A stretch of DNA of 12,456 nt from Oculatellaceae cyanobacterium bins.114. GTDB taxonomy: Bacteria > Cyanobacteriota > Cyanobacteriia > Elainellales > Elainellaceae. Below, piece after piece: positions 328 to 12,096 of this stretch; the stretch's first letter is position 1, and every line of letters begins with the position of its first letter. The translations under genes and the position numbers were made by a program. The notes beneath the pieces are model-generated. The model was not told the origin of the DNA. It did no database searches and saw only the letters and a list, made by a program, of their open reading frames with translations. The DNA is taken from contig JANRJA010000157.1 of NCBI GenBank assembly GCA_033764315.1, positions 1-12,456 of the forward strand, given 5' to 3'.

Positions 328-1989
328 CTAATCCAACAAGCTGAGTTGCACCGCATCATCTTCCGCTGCATCGTGTGCTTTAGGGGGTCGTCTACGGGTT
401 TTAGTAGGGTGAGGTTTAATCTCAACATGCGCCACAAACCAGGTTCGCAGGGCTTTTGCCTGTTCTAAATCCAGGTTCTCTAAATCAAGAGCAACGGGGA
501 ACAAATCAGGGTTGAGTTGGGTTGCCCAGCCAATCTCGCTAACAAAGCGATCGCTCCCAAAAGGCACGACTGATTCTGGCAATCGCCCTAAAAACGGAAT
601 GACGTTGTCGTGATGCATAAAAATCTGGCGTTGTTGCTCTAGTTGTTTTACCCGACGCTGTCGTGCCGTTTTGTAGTTGAGAATTGGCGGTGGATAGTCG
701 CACAAACGAGGGGGCATTCCCAATTGCTCTGGTGGCAAATGAGCAACTTCGGGTACCCATTGTCGAATGAAGCCGCCTTGAGGATCACAGCGATCGACAG
801 CGACTTGTCCAGGATTGTAAATGCGCGTCCAGGTTTTATCAACACAATGGGTTACGCCCGCCTGCATTGCCCACTGGTAGTGATCAATCGGGCAATCGCC
901 ATCAATTAAATGCCGCATAAAGTGTAATGCACCATACCGCCAATCCATCCCCAATAAATTGCTCAAAAAGCTAGAGTAGATGGCTCTGACTCGAAAATTT
1001 AGTTGCTTCCAACCGCCCGTGGCTTCTAGACAACGGGCAGCGGCATCAATGATGGGAAATCCGGTTTGACCCTCTTGCCATGCTTGATAGAGATCGTCGT
1101 CAAATGCCCAATCTTCTTGGTCAAAGATCTGATAGAGCGATCGCACTTCTAACTGAGGCAGGTAGCGGAATCTCTGAGCGAACCCACTGCCCCAGCGCAA
1201 CCGAGAGATAAATTGCTGTCGGCTCCGCTGCACTCGTGGGTCTTTAGAGTCCTGTAGCTGTTGAGCGGTGTGAAAACACTCGCGCACTGAGATCGCCCCA
1301 AATTTGATGTAAGGACTCAGCCCTGATGTGGCTTCTGCTCCGGGGTAGGACAATTGCCAGTAATAGCGATCGACTTTCTCGTCTAAAAACTCGCGTAGCA
1401 GCTGTCGGGCTGGCTCAATTCCCCCTGCTGGAATCAGCTTATCGTCAGCTATTAACCCTAATTCAGCTACATTGGGCAACGGCTCACTCTGCACTGACTC
1501 AGGAACGCAAATGCGACTGGGAACAGGAATGAGATCATCCTGCATTTGCATGTACCACAGGTCGCGATAGCGGGGATAGGGAATCAGGTCAGGGGTTGTG
1601 CCTGTTGGCTCAAACCAGCGAATCTTCATGTGTCGTTCTTGCAGAGCACGGTTTAGGCGAGCATCGCGGACTCGCCCATAAATGCGCTCAAAATCAACAT
1701 AGGCATAGATGCCATCGGCTTGAGTTTCTTGTACTAACTGGGGCAATATTTCAGCCGGATCTCCATAGCGGATGATCAGCCGCCCTCCTTGTTGTCGCAA
1801 GTCGTGATCAAGACTGTGCAAGCACTCCAGCATAAAAGCAACCCGTGCCGGAGCCGTTTCAGGATGGTATAACAGAGCCCGATCGAGCACAAATACTGGC
1901 ACCACCGATCCCCGCAGAGCAGCCCGATAGAGCGGCGCATGATCCACAATACGTAAGTCTCGACGAAACCAGACCAAAGTACAGGGCAT
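328..1989 (-). CDS. Cryptochrome/DNA photolyase family FAD-binding protein, divergent, with C-terminal extension (553 aa)
   Basis: Motifs LVWFRRDLRIVDHAPL, TSGLSPYIKFGAISVRE, WQEGQTGFPIIDA, DWRYG, LIDGD, RIYNP and DPQGGFIRQWVPE. ATG 1989 is preferred over TTG 2019 because family members begin just before the WFRRDLR motif. Confidence 0.92.
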   Translation of the reverse strand: MPCTLVWFRRDLRIVDHAPLYRAALRGSVVPVFVLDRALLYHPETAPARVAFMLECLHSLDHDLRQQGGRLIIRYGDPAEILPQLVQETQADGIYAYVDFERIYGRVRDARLNRALQERHMKIRWFEPTGTTPDLIPYPRYRDLWYMQMQDDLIPVPSRICVPESVQSEPLPNVAELGLIADDKLIPAGGIEPARQLLREFLDEKVDRYYWQLSYPGAEATSGLSPYIKFGAISVRECFHTAQQLQDSKDPRVQRSRQQFISRLRWGSGFAQRFRYLPQLEVRSLYQIFDQEDWAFDDDLYQAWQEGQTGFPIIDAAARCLEATGGWKQLNFRVRAIYSSFLSNLLGMDWRYGALHFMRHLIDGDCPIDHYQWAMQAGVTHCVDKTWTRIYNPGQVAVDRCDPQGGFIRQWVPEVAHLPPEQLGMPPRLCDYPPPILNYKTARQRRVKQLEQQRQIFMHHDNVIPFLGRLPESVVPFGSDRFVSEIGWATQLNPDLFPVALDLENLDLEQAKALRTWFVAHVEIKPHPTKTRRRPPKAHDAAEDDAVQLSLLD

Positions 1990-2087
1990 AAGGGCGATCG
2001 CTCTGTAATGTTGTAACAAAATCTAAACTTTACCTATTTAAAATTTAACGTACATAAGTCGGAAGGCGGAATTCTTTGTAAGATGCA

Positions 2088-5740: not shown

Positions 5741-6760
5741 ATGATTAACCTCTTTCGCCGCCGTGTTATCCGATTTCTATGCTTAGCTGGACTCGCGTTT
5801 GGGTTATTAGTAGCCTGTAATGCTCAGAAACCTTCTGCTGAGGCTCCACAACTCTCCACTCAACCGTTGGTGGTGGCTTCCTCACCGTGGCCCGGATTTG
5901 CTCCCCACTATGTAGCCCTGGCAAAAGAGTTCTTTCAAGCAGAAGACATTCTAGTTGAAGACAGTTATTTTCAAATTGCGACGGATGTCAACACGGCTTT
6001 GTTAGCAGGAAGGGTTGATCTAGCTTGGACGGGTGTTCCTGATATGGTGATCATGGCAGAACAGGATCCGTCCCTGCGATTGATTGCTTTATCGGATTAT
6101 TCTAATGGCGCAGATGGCATTTTGGCGCGTAATGTCTCTCAACCTCAAGATCTCAAAGGCAAGCAAGTGGCTTGGGAAGAATTGCCCCTCCAGGCGTTAT
6201 TACTGCGGAAGTATTTAGAAACGGGCGGATTGGCTGAGCAAGACATTACATTGCTAACTATGCCTGCGGCTGAAGCGGCTACAGCATTTGCTAGCAAGCA
6301 AGTGGATGTGGCAGTTACCTATGAACCCTGGCTGTCAACAGCGGCGCAAGAGGGGCAGGGCGAAATCATCTTTTCGTCTAAAAATACCAACATTATTCCC
6401 GTTGGTTTAGTTGCAAAAGAAAGTGTGATTCAACAGCGCAAACCGGAGATTCTGGCATTCCTCAGGGCGATCGACAAAGGAGTGCAATTTGTCCGACAAA
6501 ACCCAGACGAGATGGCAGAGATTACCGCTAAAAAGCTGGGTGTCACTCCAGAAGAGGTGCCTGCTCTGCTAGAGACTGTCAGGATTTTTAGCATGGAGGA
6601 GAATGCCACGATCGTATTTAATGCTGATGATCCTTTAAATGTGATGGATAGCATCGAATTTGCTGCAAAAACGAGTCAAGAGATCAAGCTGCTCACTCAA
6701 CCTGTAGATGCAAAAACACTCTATGATGACTCTCTTGTGAAAGAGTTGCAAGGTAGTTAA
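5741..6760 (+). CDS. ABC transporter substrate-binding lipoprotein, SsuA/TauA/NMT1(THI5)-like (339 aa)
   Basis: Basic N-terminus, hydrophobic stretch and lipobox LVAC (Cys26). Motifs SPWPGFAPHYVALAKEFF, DYSNGADGIL, DLKGKQVA and VDVAVTYEPWLS. Confidence 0.9.
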   Translation: MINLFRRRVIRFLCLAGLAFGLLVACNAQKPSAEAPQLSTQPLVVASSPWPGFAPHYVALAKEFFQAEDILVEDSYFQIATDVNTALLAGRVDLAWTGVPDMVIMAEQDPSLRLIALSDYSNGADGILARNVSQPQDLKGKQVAWEELPLQALLLRKYLETGGLAEQDITLLTMPAAEAATAFASKQVDVAVTYEPWLSTAAQEGQGEIIFSSKNTNIIPVGLVAKESVIQQRKPEILAFLRAIDKGVQFVRQNPDEMAEITAKKLGVTPEEVPALLETVRIFSMEENATIVFNADDPLNVMDSIEFAAKTSQEIKLLTQPVDAKTLYDDSLVKELQGS

Positions 6761-6793
6761 GACATGTGCGGCTTGGTTGAAACGTTGTAAGTC

Positions 6794-7546
6794 TTAAACC
6801 GCTATACTCTGCGGCAAGTCGATGAATTGTTGCATAAACTGATCGGCTAACGGTTGTACAAACGGTGTGTGGTATCTTGCTTCGGCTAACATTTGCTCTA
6901 GGGTTGTGTCTTCAATTTGGCTATCTTCCAATTCTTTCTCGATCACGGCTCCGCAACTTCGCAATGCGGCTTCATTCATCTCTAAATGAAACTGAATGGC
7001 CCATACATGCTGCTGATAGCGAAATGCTTGATTGGGGTAGCGATCGCTCCAAGCTAGACGGACGCATTTGGGTGGAATCTCAAATGTGTCTTGATGCGAT
7101 TGAAACACATTAAACTGATCTGGCAAAACCTGAAATATGGGGTCGTGTTGGGCTGTGGGCATGAGTTTTACCTCACACCACCCTGCCTCTCGTCCATTCT
7201 CACCGCGATAGACCTTAGCCCCCAACACTTTTGCCAAAATCTGCGATCCCAAACAGATGCCCAACGTAGGAACGCCTTGCGCGATCGCCCCTTCAATTAG
7301 CCCAAACTCGTAGCGCAAAAAAGGATATTCCTCATCTTCAAAGGCACTCATCGCGCCCCCCAAAATGATCAGGTGAGAATAGTCAGTGATCGGTTCTGTT
7401 AACGTTTCGCCCAAAACCGTATCTAAATAGCGAAAGGGAATGGTGTTCTGACGCAGTTGGTTTTCCAATAATCCTAATTCTGAGCAAGTCTCGTGGCGAA
7501 TCACTAATACTCGATTTTGCTGTGGCACTCGATTTTGTCCTGGCAT
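6794..7546 (-). CDS. Stand-alone class I glutamine amidotransferase / gamma-glutamyl hydrolase-like protein (250 aa)
   Basis: LIILGGAMS, nucleophile elbow PTLGICLGSQ and QFHLE complete a Cys-His-Glu triad. AGGAG RBS at 7554-7558 (-). No synthase domain is attached. Confidence 0.9.
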   Translation of the reverse strand: MPGQNRVPQQNRVLVIRHETCSELGLLENQLRQNTIPFRYLDTVLGETLTEPITDYSHLIILGGAMSAFEDEEYPFLRYEFGLIEGAIAQGVPTLGICLGSQILAKVLGAKVYRGENGREAGWCEVKLMPTAQHDPIFQVLPDQFNVFQSHQDTFEIPPKCVRLAWSDRYPNQAFRYQQHVWAIQFHLEMNEAALRSCGAVIEKELEDSQIEDTTLEQMLAEARYHTPFVQPLADQFMQQFIDLPQSIAV

Positions 7547-7600
7547 TCTGCAACTCCTGAGTCAGACCTGTCCATCATTTTTGATTTGGAATTGCGATTT

Positions 7601-7618
7601 CCGTAATCTAGATAACGG
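7601..7618. promoter_or_regulatory. Near-perfect 18-bp palindrome containing an NtcA-like site (GTA-N8-AAC) between divergent genes
   Basis: CCGTAATCTAGATAACGG has one mismatched pair and keeps the GT-N10-AC core of the NtcA consensus GTAN8TAC. It lies near the middle of the 137-bp divergent intergenic region. Confidence 0.45.
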
Positions 7619-7683
7619 TTTTCAGCAATCTAACCATTGAGGATGAGTATATTCAATCTGTTGAAGCTTGTTATAACATCTTT

Positions 7684-8598
7684 ATGCCCAGCCCACTTAC
7701 CCACTTGACTTCAGAACAGGTCACCCAGTTTCACGAAGACGGGTTTTTGATTATTGAAGATCTTCTCGATCAGCACCTGGTTAATCAACTGGTGAATCGC
7801 GTTGACCCTTTGTTTGCCGGTGAATTTGAGACAGGGGTTTATCCTGATGAGTGGCATTGGAACCCTTACCTGAGCTTGCCGGGGGCATCGGGGCAGATGA
7901 CAGGTGTGTGGAAGTGCGATCGCACATTGGCAAGTGTCATGCTCTCTAGCGGATTGGGGCAAATTTGTGCAGCGTTGGGCAACTGGTCAGGTGCTCGTGT
8001 GCTGGTCGATGGTTTGTGGCGCAAACCCTATGGTGCTTCTGAAACCACGCTGCATCAAGATTCAATGTATTCCTTCTATCACACGCCGCAAGACATTGTG
8101 ATTGCGTGGATTGCCCTTAGCGATGCGGTGCATGGAGCGGGCACGATTGAATATGTGCGTGGTTCTCACAAATGGCCTCTGTCGCAAACGGTAGGCGAAT
8201 TTCACGCTGTCAACAAAAGCTATCGCTCTGATATGGAGCAAGCCGCTGAGCGGGCTGGAATTAGCCATCCAGAAGTGTTGCAACTGGAACTCAAACCGGG
8301 GAGTTGTGCCTTTCATCACGGGCACATGTGGCATGGCTCTGGCAAAAACACCACTCCTGGCAAGTTGCGACAAAGTTTAGTAGTGGCCTGCATCCCGGCA
8401 GAGTCTCGCTTTAAACCGGCTGAAACCTATGTGCCTGGAGGCTACATTGCGGGTCGATATAAGCAGTATGGCAGCGATGCAATGGATGAAAGCTTTTTCC
8501 CGATTTTGTGGACACAAGACGGCTATCGTACGCCCTTTTTAGCCGATTACTGTGAGGATGGGTTGCCAGCGGCTCCTGCTCTGGTTGCTCTGGCTTAG
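7684..8598 (+). CDS. Phytanoyl-CoA dioxygenase (PhyH) family Fe(II)/2-oxoglutarate dioxygenase, paralog 1 (304 aa)
   Basis: LTSEQVTQFHEDGFLIIEDLL start, HQD iron motif (8053-8061), WIALSDA, GTIEYVRGSHKW, distal His in WHGSG, and a 2OG-binding Arg in LRQS. Confidence 0.93.
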   Translation: MPSPLTHLTSEQVTQFHEDGFLIIEDLLDQHLVNQLVNRVDPLFAGEFETGVYPDEWHWNPYLSLPGASGQMTGVWKCDRTLASVMLSSGLGQICAALGNWSGARVLVDGLWRKPYGASETTLHQDSMYSFYHTPQDIVIAWIALSDAVHGAGTIEYVRGSHKWPLSQTVGEFHAVNKSYRSDMEQAAERAGISHPEVLQLELKPGSCAFHHGHMWHGSGKNTTPGKLRQSLVVACIPAESRFKPAETYVPGGYIAGRYKQYGSDAMDESFFPILWTQDGYRTPFLADYCEDGLPAAPALVALA

Positions 8599-8616
8599 TA
8601 AGGAGTTTTGTTGCCC

Positions 8617-9510
8617 ATGTCATATACCCCCATTCATCTGAGTGATGCTCAGATTGAGCAATTTCAGGAACAAGGCTTTCTGATTTTAGACAAGTTTTTA
8701 GAGTTGGCTCTGGTCGATCGCATTATTGAACGGCTTGATCCCCTCTTTGCTACGCGCTTTGAAACGGGCAACTATCCTGATGAGTGGTATGGTCGTCCGG
8801 GGTTAAACATTCCTAACTCGACTCGGCAGATGAGCGGTCTGTGGCACTGCGATCGCACCATTGCCAGTTTTACATTCTCGGCTGAGATCGCCCGTCTCAA
8901 CGCCACCTTGATGGGCTGGTCGGGTGGTCGGCTTGCCACCGATAGCTGCTGGATTAAGCCTCCCGGTGCTCCAGAGGTGGCTTTTCATCGCAACAACACC
9001 TACGCCGCCTGTATTGATCCCCCATCGCTGATCACCTGCTGGATTGCCCTCAGCGATGCCACCGCTCAGGCAGGCACGTTGGAGTATGTTCCTGGGTCTC
9101 ATTTATGGCGATGCACCGACCAACCCCGGTTTTTGCACGCCCCCAAAGACGACTATCGTCAACCCCTGTGGCAAGCGGCACACGAAGCTGGAGTCGATGC
9201 ACCCAAAATTCTCTCGGCTGAGATTCCTCCAGGCGGGTGCATCTTTTTACATGGTGACTTGTGGCACGGCTCTGGCATCAACCAAACCACCGACCAAACT
9301 CGTCGCAGCTTTGCCGTTAGCACTTTTTCGGCGCAGGCCCAGTTTCAATCAGAGACTCAGTACGGCTATATTTTTAGCCGCTATCGCCGAGTCACCTCTA
9401 TCGAGATGGATGAGAGCTTTTTCCCCATTTTGTGGACAGCGGATGGATATCGCTCTCCTCTGGCGCGGGATTACTGTGAGGATGCGCTTTTGCCTGCACT
9501 AGTTGTTTAA
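8617..9510 (+). CDS. PhyH family Fe(II)/2-oxoglutarate dioxygenase-like protein, paralog 2, with atypical HxN motif (about 297 aa)
   Basis: Collinear with paralog 1 (FETGxYPDEW, CDRT, WIALSDA, WHGSG, MDESFFPILWT), but HRN at 8986-8994 replaces HQD. TAAGGAG RBS at 8599-8605; the start could be TTG 8611 or ATG 8617. Confidence 0.9.
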   Translation: MSYTPIHLSDAQIEQFQEQGFLILDKFLELALVDRIIERLDPLFATRFETGNYPDEWYGRPGLNIPNSTRQMSGLWHCDRTIASFTFSAEIARLNATLMGWSGGRLATDSCWIKPPGAPEVAFHRNNTYAACIDPPSLITCWIALSDATAQAGTLEYVPGSHLWRCTDQPRFLHAPKDDYRQPLWQAAHEAGVDAPKILSAEIPPGGCIFLHGDLWHGSGINQTTDQTRRSFAVSTFSAQAQFQSETQYGYIFSRYRRVTSIEMDESFFPILWTADGYRSPLARDYCEDALLPALVV

Positions 9511-11588: not shown

Positions 11589-11933
11589 CTACGGGTATTC
11601 TTGCTTCAGAATTAGTCTAATTGCAACATCTAATTCAGGAATTTTATTGATTACAACATCCCAAACAATTTCATAATCAACGCTGAAGTAGTTGTGAATT
11701 CATCGATCGCGCATTCCAGCCAAAGCTCGCCACTCAACAGCATCGTATTTTTGACGCACCCCATCCGGTAGCTGTTTAACTGCTTCCCCAATCACTTCAA
11801 TACTGCAAACGTAAGCGCGTTTCAAGGTTTCATCTTGTACAAATGTTGCCTTGTCTAAACTCGTGGAACTCATCATGATGTAAGTCGTTTCATCAAGAAT
11901 GTGTTGCAGATACTCACGAGCTGACGGAGACAT
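11589..11933 (-). pseudogene. HepT-like (DUF86/HEPN) ribonuclease toxin with an internal nonsense codon
   Basis: MSPSAREYLQHILDE...SIEVIGEAVKQLP...WRALAGMRDR*IHNYFSVDYEIVWDVVINKIPEL...EYP*. The in-frame TGA at 11700-11702 falls inside the R-X4-H-X-Y motif, and the frame continues to TAG at 11589-11591. Confidence 0.9.
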
Positions 11934-12096
11934 ACTCGACCTCATCCAAAATATGTGAACCAATGTAGGGACTTAACGACTCAATCGTGATGAGATCGAC
12001 TGCTCTGCCAAATAGATCTTCTAGGAAAAAAGATAGGTGTATAAAGTTATCAAACGTTTTTTGATCTGGCTCAAAAGTAACCAGAATATCAACATC
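11914..12096 (-). pseudogene. MntA-like minimal nucleotidyltransferase antitoxin, 5'-truncated
   Basis: Manual translation DVDILVTFEPDQKTFDNFIHLSFFLEDLFGRAVDLITIESLSPYIGSHILDEVEYVSVSS*. It overlaps the toxin start by 20 nt. An in-frame TGA precedes it, and no upstream FGS motif is present in any minus-strand frame up to 12164. Confidence 0.85.

Follow-up and report, generated by a model that had tools for sequence, protein, structure and literature searches.

A conserved amidotransferase and PhyH dioxygenase pair in filamentous cyanobacteria, a candidate module for scavenging nitrogen from small amines

What does a class I glutamine amidotransferase (GATase) that has no synthase beside it do next to two iron(II)/2-oxoglutarate (Fe/2OG) dioxygenases of the PhyH family, and which neighboring genes work with them? 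The question is raised by a 12,456-nucleotide (nt) stretch of the Oculatellaceae cyanobacterium bins.114 genome (GenBank GCA_033764315.1, contig JANRJA010000157.1), called the window here. It is a complete contig (C68) of a cyanobacterial assembly of 6.6 Mb and 90.7% completeness, and the named relatives of this source genome are filamentous cyanobacteria. Four open reading frames (ORFs) lie where a first-pass annotation, made from the letters alone, had placed them: an NMT1/THI5-like binding lipoprotein (5741-6760, plus strand; ORF list and Pfam), a class I GATase (6794-7546, minus strand), and two PhyH proteins that we call PhyA (7684-8598, plus strand) and PhyB (8617-9510, plus strand). The locus is flanked, as described there, by glgP and DUF423 genes. 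The lipoprotein and GATase genes converge with 33 nt between them, the GATase and PhyA starts are divergent and 137 nt apart, and the PhyB ATG follows the stop codon of PhyA after a gap of 18 nt that contains a ribosome-site-like AAGGAG. That annotation took all four genes for one organic-nitrogen scavenging module, an interpretation that we find partly supported: the conserved core consists of the GATase, PhyA, and PhyB, with a glutamine synthetase (GS)-like ligase and a DUF6885 protein encoded elsewhere in the source genome.

The composition of this core emerged from gene linkage. ORFs were called and clustered in 92 related loci and the window, and for the linkage counts we took 57 loci from cyanobacteria (L051-L107; each species represented by a single genome, many contigs short), comprising all near-full matches at least 54% identical to PhyA; partial matches and the distant relatives L108-L122 were excluded. 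The GATase is present in 53/57 loci. A regular expression found PhyB in 54/57, L055 and L089 hold PhyB variants that it missed, and L091 is a 1.1-kb contig. The GS-like ligase follows in 36 loci, DUF6885 in 26, Amt in 15, an APC permease, the recurring transporter of the loci, in 10, a copper amine oxidase in 9, a gene resembling trimethylamine N-oxide (TMAO) demethylase in 8, and an aldehyde dehydrogenase (ALDH) in 3. Where 4 kb could be read on both sides (30 loci), the GATase was found in 29, the ligase in 20, and DUF6885 in 17. We also surveyed 301 genomes sampled evenly across the class, reading the tandem pair from match coordinates; absence in this sample means not found with that query. 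The PhyH family occurs in 54 of these genomes and the tandem PhyA-PhyB pair in 21, the two genes being side by side in all 21. Pair genomes carry a ligase orthologue in 15/21 cases (4/280 of the others), DUF6885 in 15/21 (5/280), and MgsC in 12/21 (32/280), and DUF6885 is confined to genomes with this PhyH family (20/20). The source genome has its ligase on contig C209 (72-73% identical to the cluster ligases), its DUF6885 on C207 (52%), and its APC permease on C94 (65%), all scattered away from the window. A copper amine oxidase was considered as a downstream partner and set aside, as 58 of 70 hand-picked genomes carry one regardless of the pair and 6/21 pair genomes lack it. Four loci (L061, L069, L071, and L072) hold two PhyA copies before one PhyB, giving three PhyH genes in tandem.

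The GATase matches PF00117 with 66.8 bits against a cut-off of 22.8 and is PRK07053/TM1158-like, although below the NCBIfam cut-off; its peptidase C26 score is weak. The intact triad claimed for it was read as Cys98-His187-Glu189. Its scores fall far under the cut-offs of all synthase subunit models (GuaA, TrpG/PabA, HisH, and CarA), which speaks against a role as glutaminase subunit of any known synthase. No synthase partner is adjacent, as the first-pass annotation had noted, and contig C193 encodes a complete GMP synthase (512 positions). Eight further genes with a GATase domain are present in the source genome. This GATase is predicted to be a gamma-glutamyl-amide hydrolase. Orthologues at least 55% identical were found in 8/41 relatives' genomes, each adjoining PhyA. 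Across the loci the GATase slot is held by two lineages, about 20% identical to each other. The 25 Cys-type GATases are divergent and upstream of PhyA and keep C98, H187, and E189 in 25/25, and the 30 Ser-type GATases lie downstream of PhyB in marine-type loci and carry G-F-S-F-A and His-Pro-Glu in 30/30 (e.g., L082:11785-12588). The latter could be serine-type class I GATases or an inactive form.

The ligase of the source genome lies at G000:C209:58819-60198. In 34/34 sequences of its clade, Phe takes the place of the flap Glu, the Asp50 column holds Tyr, and Tyr179 is replaced by His, the Asp50 loop being gappy in the alignment; an N-terminal loop insertion was seen, and Glu212 and His269 are retained. 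Judged from these columns, the residues with which true GS handles ammonium are gone from the ligase. With a GS catalytic domain that has lost the flap Glu and Asp50, the C209 protein shows the residue pattern of GoaS/PuuA/IpuC/AtdA1-type enzymes, and the same losses are described for enzymes that glutamylate organic amines (PMC11335346; also PMC7948447). It scores below the cut-offs of the GmaS-type model TIGR03105 (287.9 versus 469.6), the PuuA model NF045547 (262.2 versus 650 bits), and GlnA, and its scores against PDB entries are nearly equal for GSI-alpha, the 510-residue GS-like chain 8wwu, and GmaS. The source genome has at least six GS-family genes. Separate GmaS-type genes (C188:17804-19144 and C49:13316-14674) exceed the TIGR03105 cut-off and are about 30% identical to the ligase, and a cluster of sarcosine-oxidase-like and mgsABC-like genes lies at C16:2012-11698. 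DUF6885 (G000:C207:13706-14560, L124) resembles the papain folds of phytochelatin synthase and C39 proteins (Atlas feature score 0.93, TM ~0.55) and has invariant Gln, Cys43, His194, and Asp214 residues; its profile gave 0 matches against PDB sequences at E 10. We regard it as a lead for a second glutamyl-handling enzyme and the papain-like resemblance as a lead for naming DUF6885.

The intergenic region between the GATase and PhyA contains a feature that the first-pass annotation overlooked, an NtcA-type box, GTA-N8-AAC (7603-7616, plus strand), with one mismatch to the canonical GTA-N8-TAC (PMC3898017) and at the same aligned place in the orthologous intergenic regions. A putative -10 box, GAGGAT (7639-7644, plus strand), faces phyA 22 nt past it, a spacing like that of class II promoters, in which GTA-N8-TAC lies about 22 nt before TAN3T. 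We compared 25 distinct GATase-PhyA intergenic regions with 300 shuffles. Exact boxes occur in 6/25 (shuffles 0.8, maximum 4) and boxes with one mismatch in 22/25 (13.2, maximum 19); refined patterns, drawn up with the alignment in view, match 20/25 (shuffles 3.1), or 15/25 (0.95) if a -10 box is also required at a distance of 22-23 nt downstream. The window itself has one exact GTA-N8-TAC, at 924, which is chance level. Of the genes outside the window, those for the ligase, DUF6885, and the APC permease all carry an exact box at most 170 nt from their start, as does glnA of the source genome, a positive control; for background, an exact box lies within 250 nt in 141 of 4086 ORFs. These sites suggest that the phyA promoter is a conserved, near-consensus NtcA promoter and that the module would be regulated by NtcA.

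The two PhyH proteins, correctly described as paralogues, are 47% identical (138/295) and differ at the predicted active site. PhyA (PF05721, 81.7 bits against a cut-off of 22) reads H124-Q-D126...H217 with R229. According to alignment columns, from which all motif states were taken, its clade has H124, D126, H217, and R229 in 63/63 sequences and K114 in 62/63, residues to which we assign iron-triad and 2-oxoglutarate (2OG)-binding roles from family knowledge; PhyA is the predicted catalytic subunit. PhyB has H124-R-N126...H217, a replacement of HxD that the first-pass annotation had not noticed, and so departs from the H-x-D/E...H triad. Among its 120 best homologues the motif is H-R-N in 114, H-R-K in 3, H-R-A in 2, and H-R-D in 1, so the acidic iron ligand is missing in 119/120, whereas the wider PhyH family is nearly all HxD. 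PhyB is for this reason likely a non-catalytic or weakly active partner of PhyA. PhyA, PhyB, and single-copy relatives that we call PhyC form three tree groups (support 100/100, 100/100, and 95/94; 51/136 sequences). Both PhyA and PhyB are predicted to have PhyH enzyme folds, with a predicted local distance difference test score (pLDDT) of 94 and 96, respectively. The PhyA model superposes on SnoK (Z 26.4, root-mean-square deviation [rmsd] 3.0 over 243 residues) as a double-stranded beta-helix, and the nearest solved enzymes (SnoK/SnoN, MysH, GriE, and proline hydroxylase) are about 20% identical, so that no substrate is indicated. The top structural match of the PhyA model was a subunit of the trypanosomal RNA-editing complex (PDB 8fnc/8fni chain 14; Z 28.0, rmsd 3.0, 270 aligned residues, 14% identity), slightly above the bacterial enzymes. 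Modeled together, PhyA and PhyB gave a complex score of 0.91, with the best control at 0.00, a mark reached by 116/157 solved complexes and 2/215 mismatched pairs. Model runs agreed in at least 96% of contacts with partner pLDDT of at least 92, and the predicted interface is pseudo-symmetric, formed by the FETGxYPDEW and GYI loops of each chain.

Alternatively, PhyA and PhyB could be two active enzymes working in sequence, with a His-Asn-His site in PhyB for a second oxidation or a non-redox step. PhyB is conserved nearly as well as PhyA (mean within-clade identity of 64% versus 68%), its homologues keep the predicted 2OG-binding Lys in 118/120 and Arg in 112/120 and have Asn in 114/120, and its fold is predicted to be like that of PhyA. 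However, the distal His is replaced in 17/120 homologues, which together with the missing carboxylate leaves one ligand; the two genes are side by side in every pair genome; and a heterodimer of one active and one degenerate Fe/2OG subunit has a reported precedent in the fungal TlxI-J and TlxA-C (PMC11880133). We consider this alternative unlikely, and the two oxidations by two dioxygenases that had been proposed are doubtful, as the acidic iron ligand is missing almost throughout the PhyB clade.

With moderate confidence, we propose that the GATase-PhyA-PhyB block, together with the ligase, DUF6885, and the APC permease, serves NtcA-activated scavenging of nitrogen from a small aliphatic amine. 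We infer the reactions, substrate, regulation, and heterodimer from the observed gene content, linkage, residue patterns, and motif enrichment. The permease would bring in the amine, and the ligase would use ATP to couple it to glutamate, yielding a gamma-glutamyl amide. PhyA, probably with the iron-deficient PhyB, would then use O2 and 2OG to hydroxylate a carbon adjoining a nitrogen, and collapse of the resulting carbinolamide would give an aldehyde and a dealkylated glutamyl amide (or glutamine). Finally, the GATase, perhaps along with the papain-like DUF6885, would cut the gamma-glutamyl bond that is left, so that glutamate is recycled and a smaller amine or ammonium is released. In this respect, the organic-nitrogen scavenging by gamma-glutamyl-amide chemistry that had been suggested for the locus gains backing from the co-occurrence of the GATase with a GS-like ligase and from the NtcA-type promoter sites. 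The substrate that we favor, as a guess, is an N-alkyl or N-methyl amine; it should be larger than methylamine, because the source genome has separate GmaS/Mgs genes for methylamine itself. Hints from individual loci conflict: L066 has mgs and gmaS-like genes next to the pair, in L256 the pair is fused with a Tdm cluster, L035 has an ethanolamine permease adjoining the pair, and a few loci carry an ALDH or an omega-aminotransferase close to it.

Several observations weigh against this proposal. The sampled genomes are related, so that the counts and contrasts overstate independence. No ligase orthologue was detected at E<=1e-130 in 6/21 pair genomes; one of these has a different GS-like gene beside the ethanolamine permease, and the other five showed no GS-like gene in the region fetched. 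MgsC is missing in 9/21 pair genomes. The refined NtcA patterns (20/25 and 15/25) were set after the alignment had been viewed. A Tdm-like gene occurs in 0/11 genomes that carry only the pair, which argues against TMAO-derived dimethylamine (DMA) as its substrate. Fold searches returned no solved relative above about 22% identity, and N-dealkylation is for this reason proposed only by analogy. The interface motifs are common to single-copy relatives, the two alignments used in modeling had outgroup rows in common, and solved dimers exist for related enzymes; for these reasons, the modeled interface may be a family homodimer surface, not a heterodimer preference.

A Puu-like catabolism of a diamine, polyamine, or amino alcohol is the main alternative. 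Here the ligase would protect one amino group, PhyAB would oxidatively deaminate or cleave the far end in a KanJ-like manner, an ALDH would follow, and deglutamylation by the GATase would be the obligatory last step. The GATase is indeed the tightest-linked gene (53/57) and is replaced by an unrelated lineage, as an obligatory step would predict. The APC permease (10 loci) and an aminoaldehyde-type ALDH (3 loci) also fit, as do two genes that score above cut-off, the L035 ethanolamine permease and an omega-aminotransferase next to DUF6885 in L053, along with a gene in L245 that resembles the latter and the 2OG-dependent deamination by KanJ (PMC13707489). Against this, ALDH and aminotransferase neighbors are rare, the ligase reaches 262 bits where PuuA requires 650, and the recurrent context of the wider family is methylamine genes. 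We rate a Puu-like route as rather unlikely and retain a small N-alkyl amine as the favored substrate.

That wider context comes from the single-copy relatives. They adjoin mgsABC-like genes in 12/76 loci, many of the others being short, and three different GS-like clades neighbor the PhyH family, which suggests that the dioxygenase acts on a glutamyl amide. A Tdm-like gene is present in 39/43 PhyC genomes, and all 39 genomes with a Tdm-like gene among the 301 carry PhyC; this distribution suggests that PhyC fits the TMAO/DMA branch and that the pair serves a different amine, and we regard the single-copy relatives as candidates for a DMA route. In the source genome, L050 (G000:C84:1864-12783) holds the third paralogue, a PhyC (H-Q-D). 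It is clustered with a GS-like gene of another clade, genes for SBP_bac_3, Amt, and MOSC proteins, an acyl-CoA-dehydrogenase-like gene, and a DUF1989+GcvT gene resembling TMAO demethylase (its clade reaches 831 bits against a cut-off of 1100), and its divergent promoter has exact NtcA boxes. Both modules are fused in L256 (G091:C122:44000-63999) as one 15-kb cluster comprising a GS-like gene, solute-binding protein, PhyC, acyl-CoA-dehydrogenase-like gene, copper amine oxidase, Tdm-like gene, Amt, DUF6885, ligase, PhyA, PhyB, and GATase. Very tentatively, and as one joint claim that we hold possible but would not bet on, the FETGxYPDEW PhyH clade, including its single-copy members in cyanobacteria, Proteobacteria, and Acidimicrobiia, could be an undescribed class of gamma-glutamyl-amide N-dealkylases: PhyC with its ligase would convert DMA to gamma-glutamylmethylamide without a DMA monooxygenase, and PhyA/PhyB would be an active/dead Fe/2OG heterodimer acting on another amine under NtcA control. 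In published work, many marine bacteria lack DMA monooxygenase (PMC5520151), GmaS takes DMA only at a Km of 16 mM (PMC7948447), and the role of glutamylmethylamide is called not well defined (PMC5023235). The idea that the pair itself fills a missing DMA monooxygenase step was weakened on two counts: a PF11927 (HODM_asu-like) gene is present in the source genome, where it has no dmm-like neighbors, and in 17/41 relatives, and the distribution of the pair does not follow that of the Tdm-like gene.

Three further observations concern these relatives. In a PhyC subclade (L050:4391-5296 and seven related sequences), Phe replaces the predicted 2OG-binding Arg (8/17 true PhyC-type sequences), and such proteins may use the co-substrate differently. 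Single-copy relatives have mgsABC-like genes, together with either one or two GS-like genes, as neighbors in L108-L110, L112, L118, L120, and L122 (Acidimicrobiia) and in L113, L114, L207, L227, and L230; several of these loci include what we take to be an old-yellow-enzyme-type flavoprotein resembling trimethylamine/DMA dehydrogenase, its best NCBIfam match being below cut-off. Another group of single-copy relatives adjoins an amidase.

Biosynthetic tailoring, in which a small secondary metabolite would be built through a glutamyl-protected intermediate, appears improbable: the nearest solved folds include the tailoring enzymes SnoK/SnoN, MysH, and GriE, but no nonribosomal peptide synthetase, polyketide synthase, or other biosynthetic genes recur among the neighbor clusters, and importers and NtcA boxes indicate uptake under nitrogen limitation. 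Neither tailoring nor a guanidine-like substrate, both raised in the first-pass annotation, is favored by anything in our analysis.

The role of the binding lipoprotein as importer of the module did not hold up either. The protein has a lipobox (LVAC, Cys26) and matches Pfam NMT1/THI5, with scores below the SsuA, TauA, and putative urea ABC binding equivalogs (best 133.9 against a cut-off of 163.5; others lower), and neither a permease nor an ATPase ORF for it is present in the window. The neighborhood check suggested for the PhyH clade came out positive for the GATase and GS-like ligase, which co-occur with it, whereas the binding protein is beside the pair in 0/57 loci, 15 of which have the same orientation and at least 2.5 kb on that side. 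It adjoins the pair only here and in a relative of the same genus. Orthologues at least 64% identical occur in 8/41 genomes, five of them without the pair, 6/9 pair genomes have no orthologue, and the orthologues have other neighbors; no NtcA box was found at the lipoprotein gene. By these sequence comparisons, the lipoprotein is probably a bystander, adjacent to the module and outside it. A four-gene unit in which it imports a substrate (e.g., a guanidine-like one) for the GATase and dioxygenases is very improbable: the adjacency in two genomes, some orthologues near genes read by eye as amide or guanidino catabolism, and a low-scoring resemblance to the family of putative urea ABC binding proteins speak for it, but the 0/57 count, a distribution discordant with the pair, the convergent gene, and the lack of an NtcA box, riboswitch, and adjacent permease or ATPase speak against it.

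The rest of the window offered little that bears on the module. An Rfam scan gave only a chance microRNA match and no riboswitch, a sigma-70 and terminator scan was not above shuffles, and a search of a plasmid collection with the window found no match at 1e-20. A photolyase/cryptochrome-family protein of 563 residues with a C-terminal extension (328-2019, minus strand) scores below every NCBIfam subfamily cut-off. Two short, unscanned ORFs were judged by eye: one (11700-11963, minus strand) is presumably a HepT/DUF86-type fragment, and the other (12230 to the contig end, plus strand) we take to be the start of an IS1-type transposase.

Database names for the module proteins are generic, and our literature search found no paper on the PhyH clade or the module, although subscription papers and supplements could hold a description. 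If the proposal is true, an Fe/2OG enzyme would be a new oxidant among the gamma-glutamylation routes of amine catabolism, and filamentous cyanobacteria of mats, crusts, and the sea would draw nitrogen from alkylamines while spending 2OG, the very compound by which NtcA senses a shortage of nitrogen. PhyB would then be a natural His-Asn-His or dead Fe/2OG subunit, and PhyC, being in all 39 Tdm-like genomes, is a testable candidate for the DMA step.

Among known systems, the Ipu (isopropylamine) and Puu (putrescine) routes share with the module a permease, a GS-like ligase, an oxidation, a class I GATase-type hydrolase, and sometimes an aldehyde dehydrogenase. The oxidant is a P450 in Ipu and the flavin oxidase PuuB in Puu, and in the module it would be an Fe/2OG enzyme instead. 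The module's ligase is also far below the PuuA cut-off, and its GATase is TM1158-like with a weak C26 score. Both routes, which are named in PMC11335346, proceed by gamma-glutamylation, as the module would. The aniline dioxygenase systems AtdA1A2A3A4A5 and NpaA1-A5 (PMC11335346) are likewise similar in having a GS-like ligase, a GAT-like hydrolase, and a two-subunit oxygenase acting on a glutamylated amine. Their oxygenase, however, is a Rieske enzyme with a reductase that acts on an aromatic ring, whereas the module has a PhyH Fe/2OG pair and no reductase; neither a Rieske nor a reductase gene was found among the scanned recurrent neighbors. Unlike Atd/Npa, the module has an NtcA-type promoter, and its ligase forms a separate clade. 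In the GmaS/MgsABC/MgdABCD and DmmABC systems, an alkylamine is glutamylated for its nitrogen, as proposed here (PMC7948447, PMC5023235, PMC5520151); the available parts of these papers describe no Fe/2OG step in the N-methylglutamate pathway. Clusters of this pathway hold single-copy PhyA relatives.

The ethanolamine route of Streptomyces GlnA4 (PMC6529630) uses a permease, a GS-like ligase, an oxidation, and a hydrolase to obtain amine nitrogen, as the module would, and L035 parallels it, since the pair there adjoins an ethanolamine permease and a different GS-like gene. The oxidation proposed for that route is assigned to a dehydrogenase plus an ALDH instead of a dioxygenase, and the module's usual ligase belongs to another clade. 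For the dioxygenase pair, the closest parallel is TlxI-TlxJ (PDB 7VBQ; PMC11880133), adjacent paralogues of related fold, one degenerate, that make one working enzyme, an arrangement that is only predicted for PhyA-PhyB. TlxI-J tailors a fungal meroterpenoid, and TlxI is described as lacking the 2OG-binding Arg and the lid loop (PMC11880133); PhyB instead lacks the iron carboxylate and mostly keeps the Arg, and identity to the fungal system is 17%. The module thus resembles the Atd/Npa, Ipu, Puu, and GlnA4 systems and belongs to none of them, having no Rieske oxygenase and a ligase below the equivalog cut-offs.

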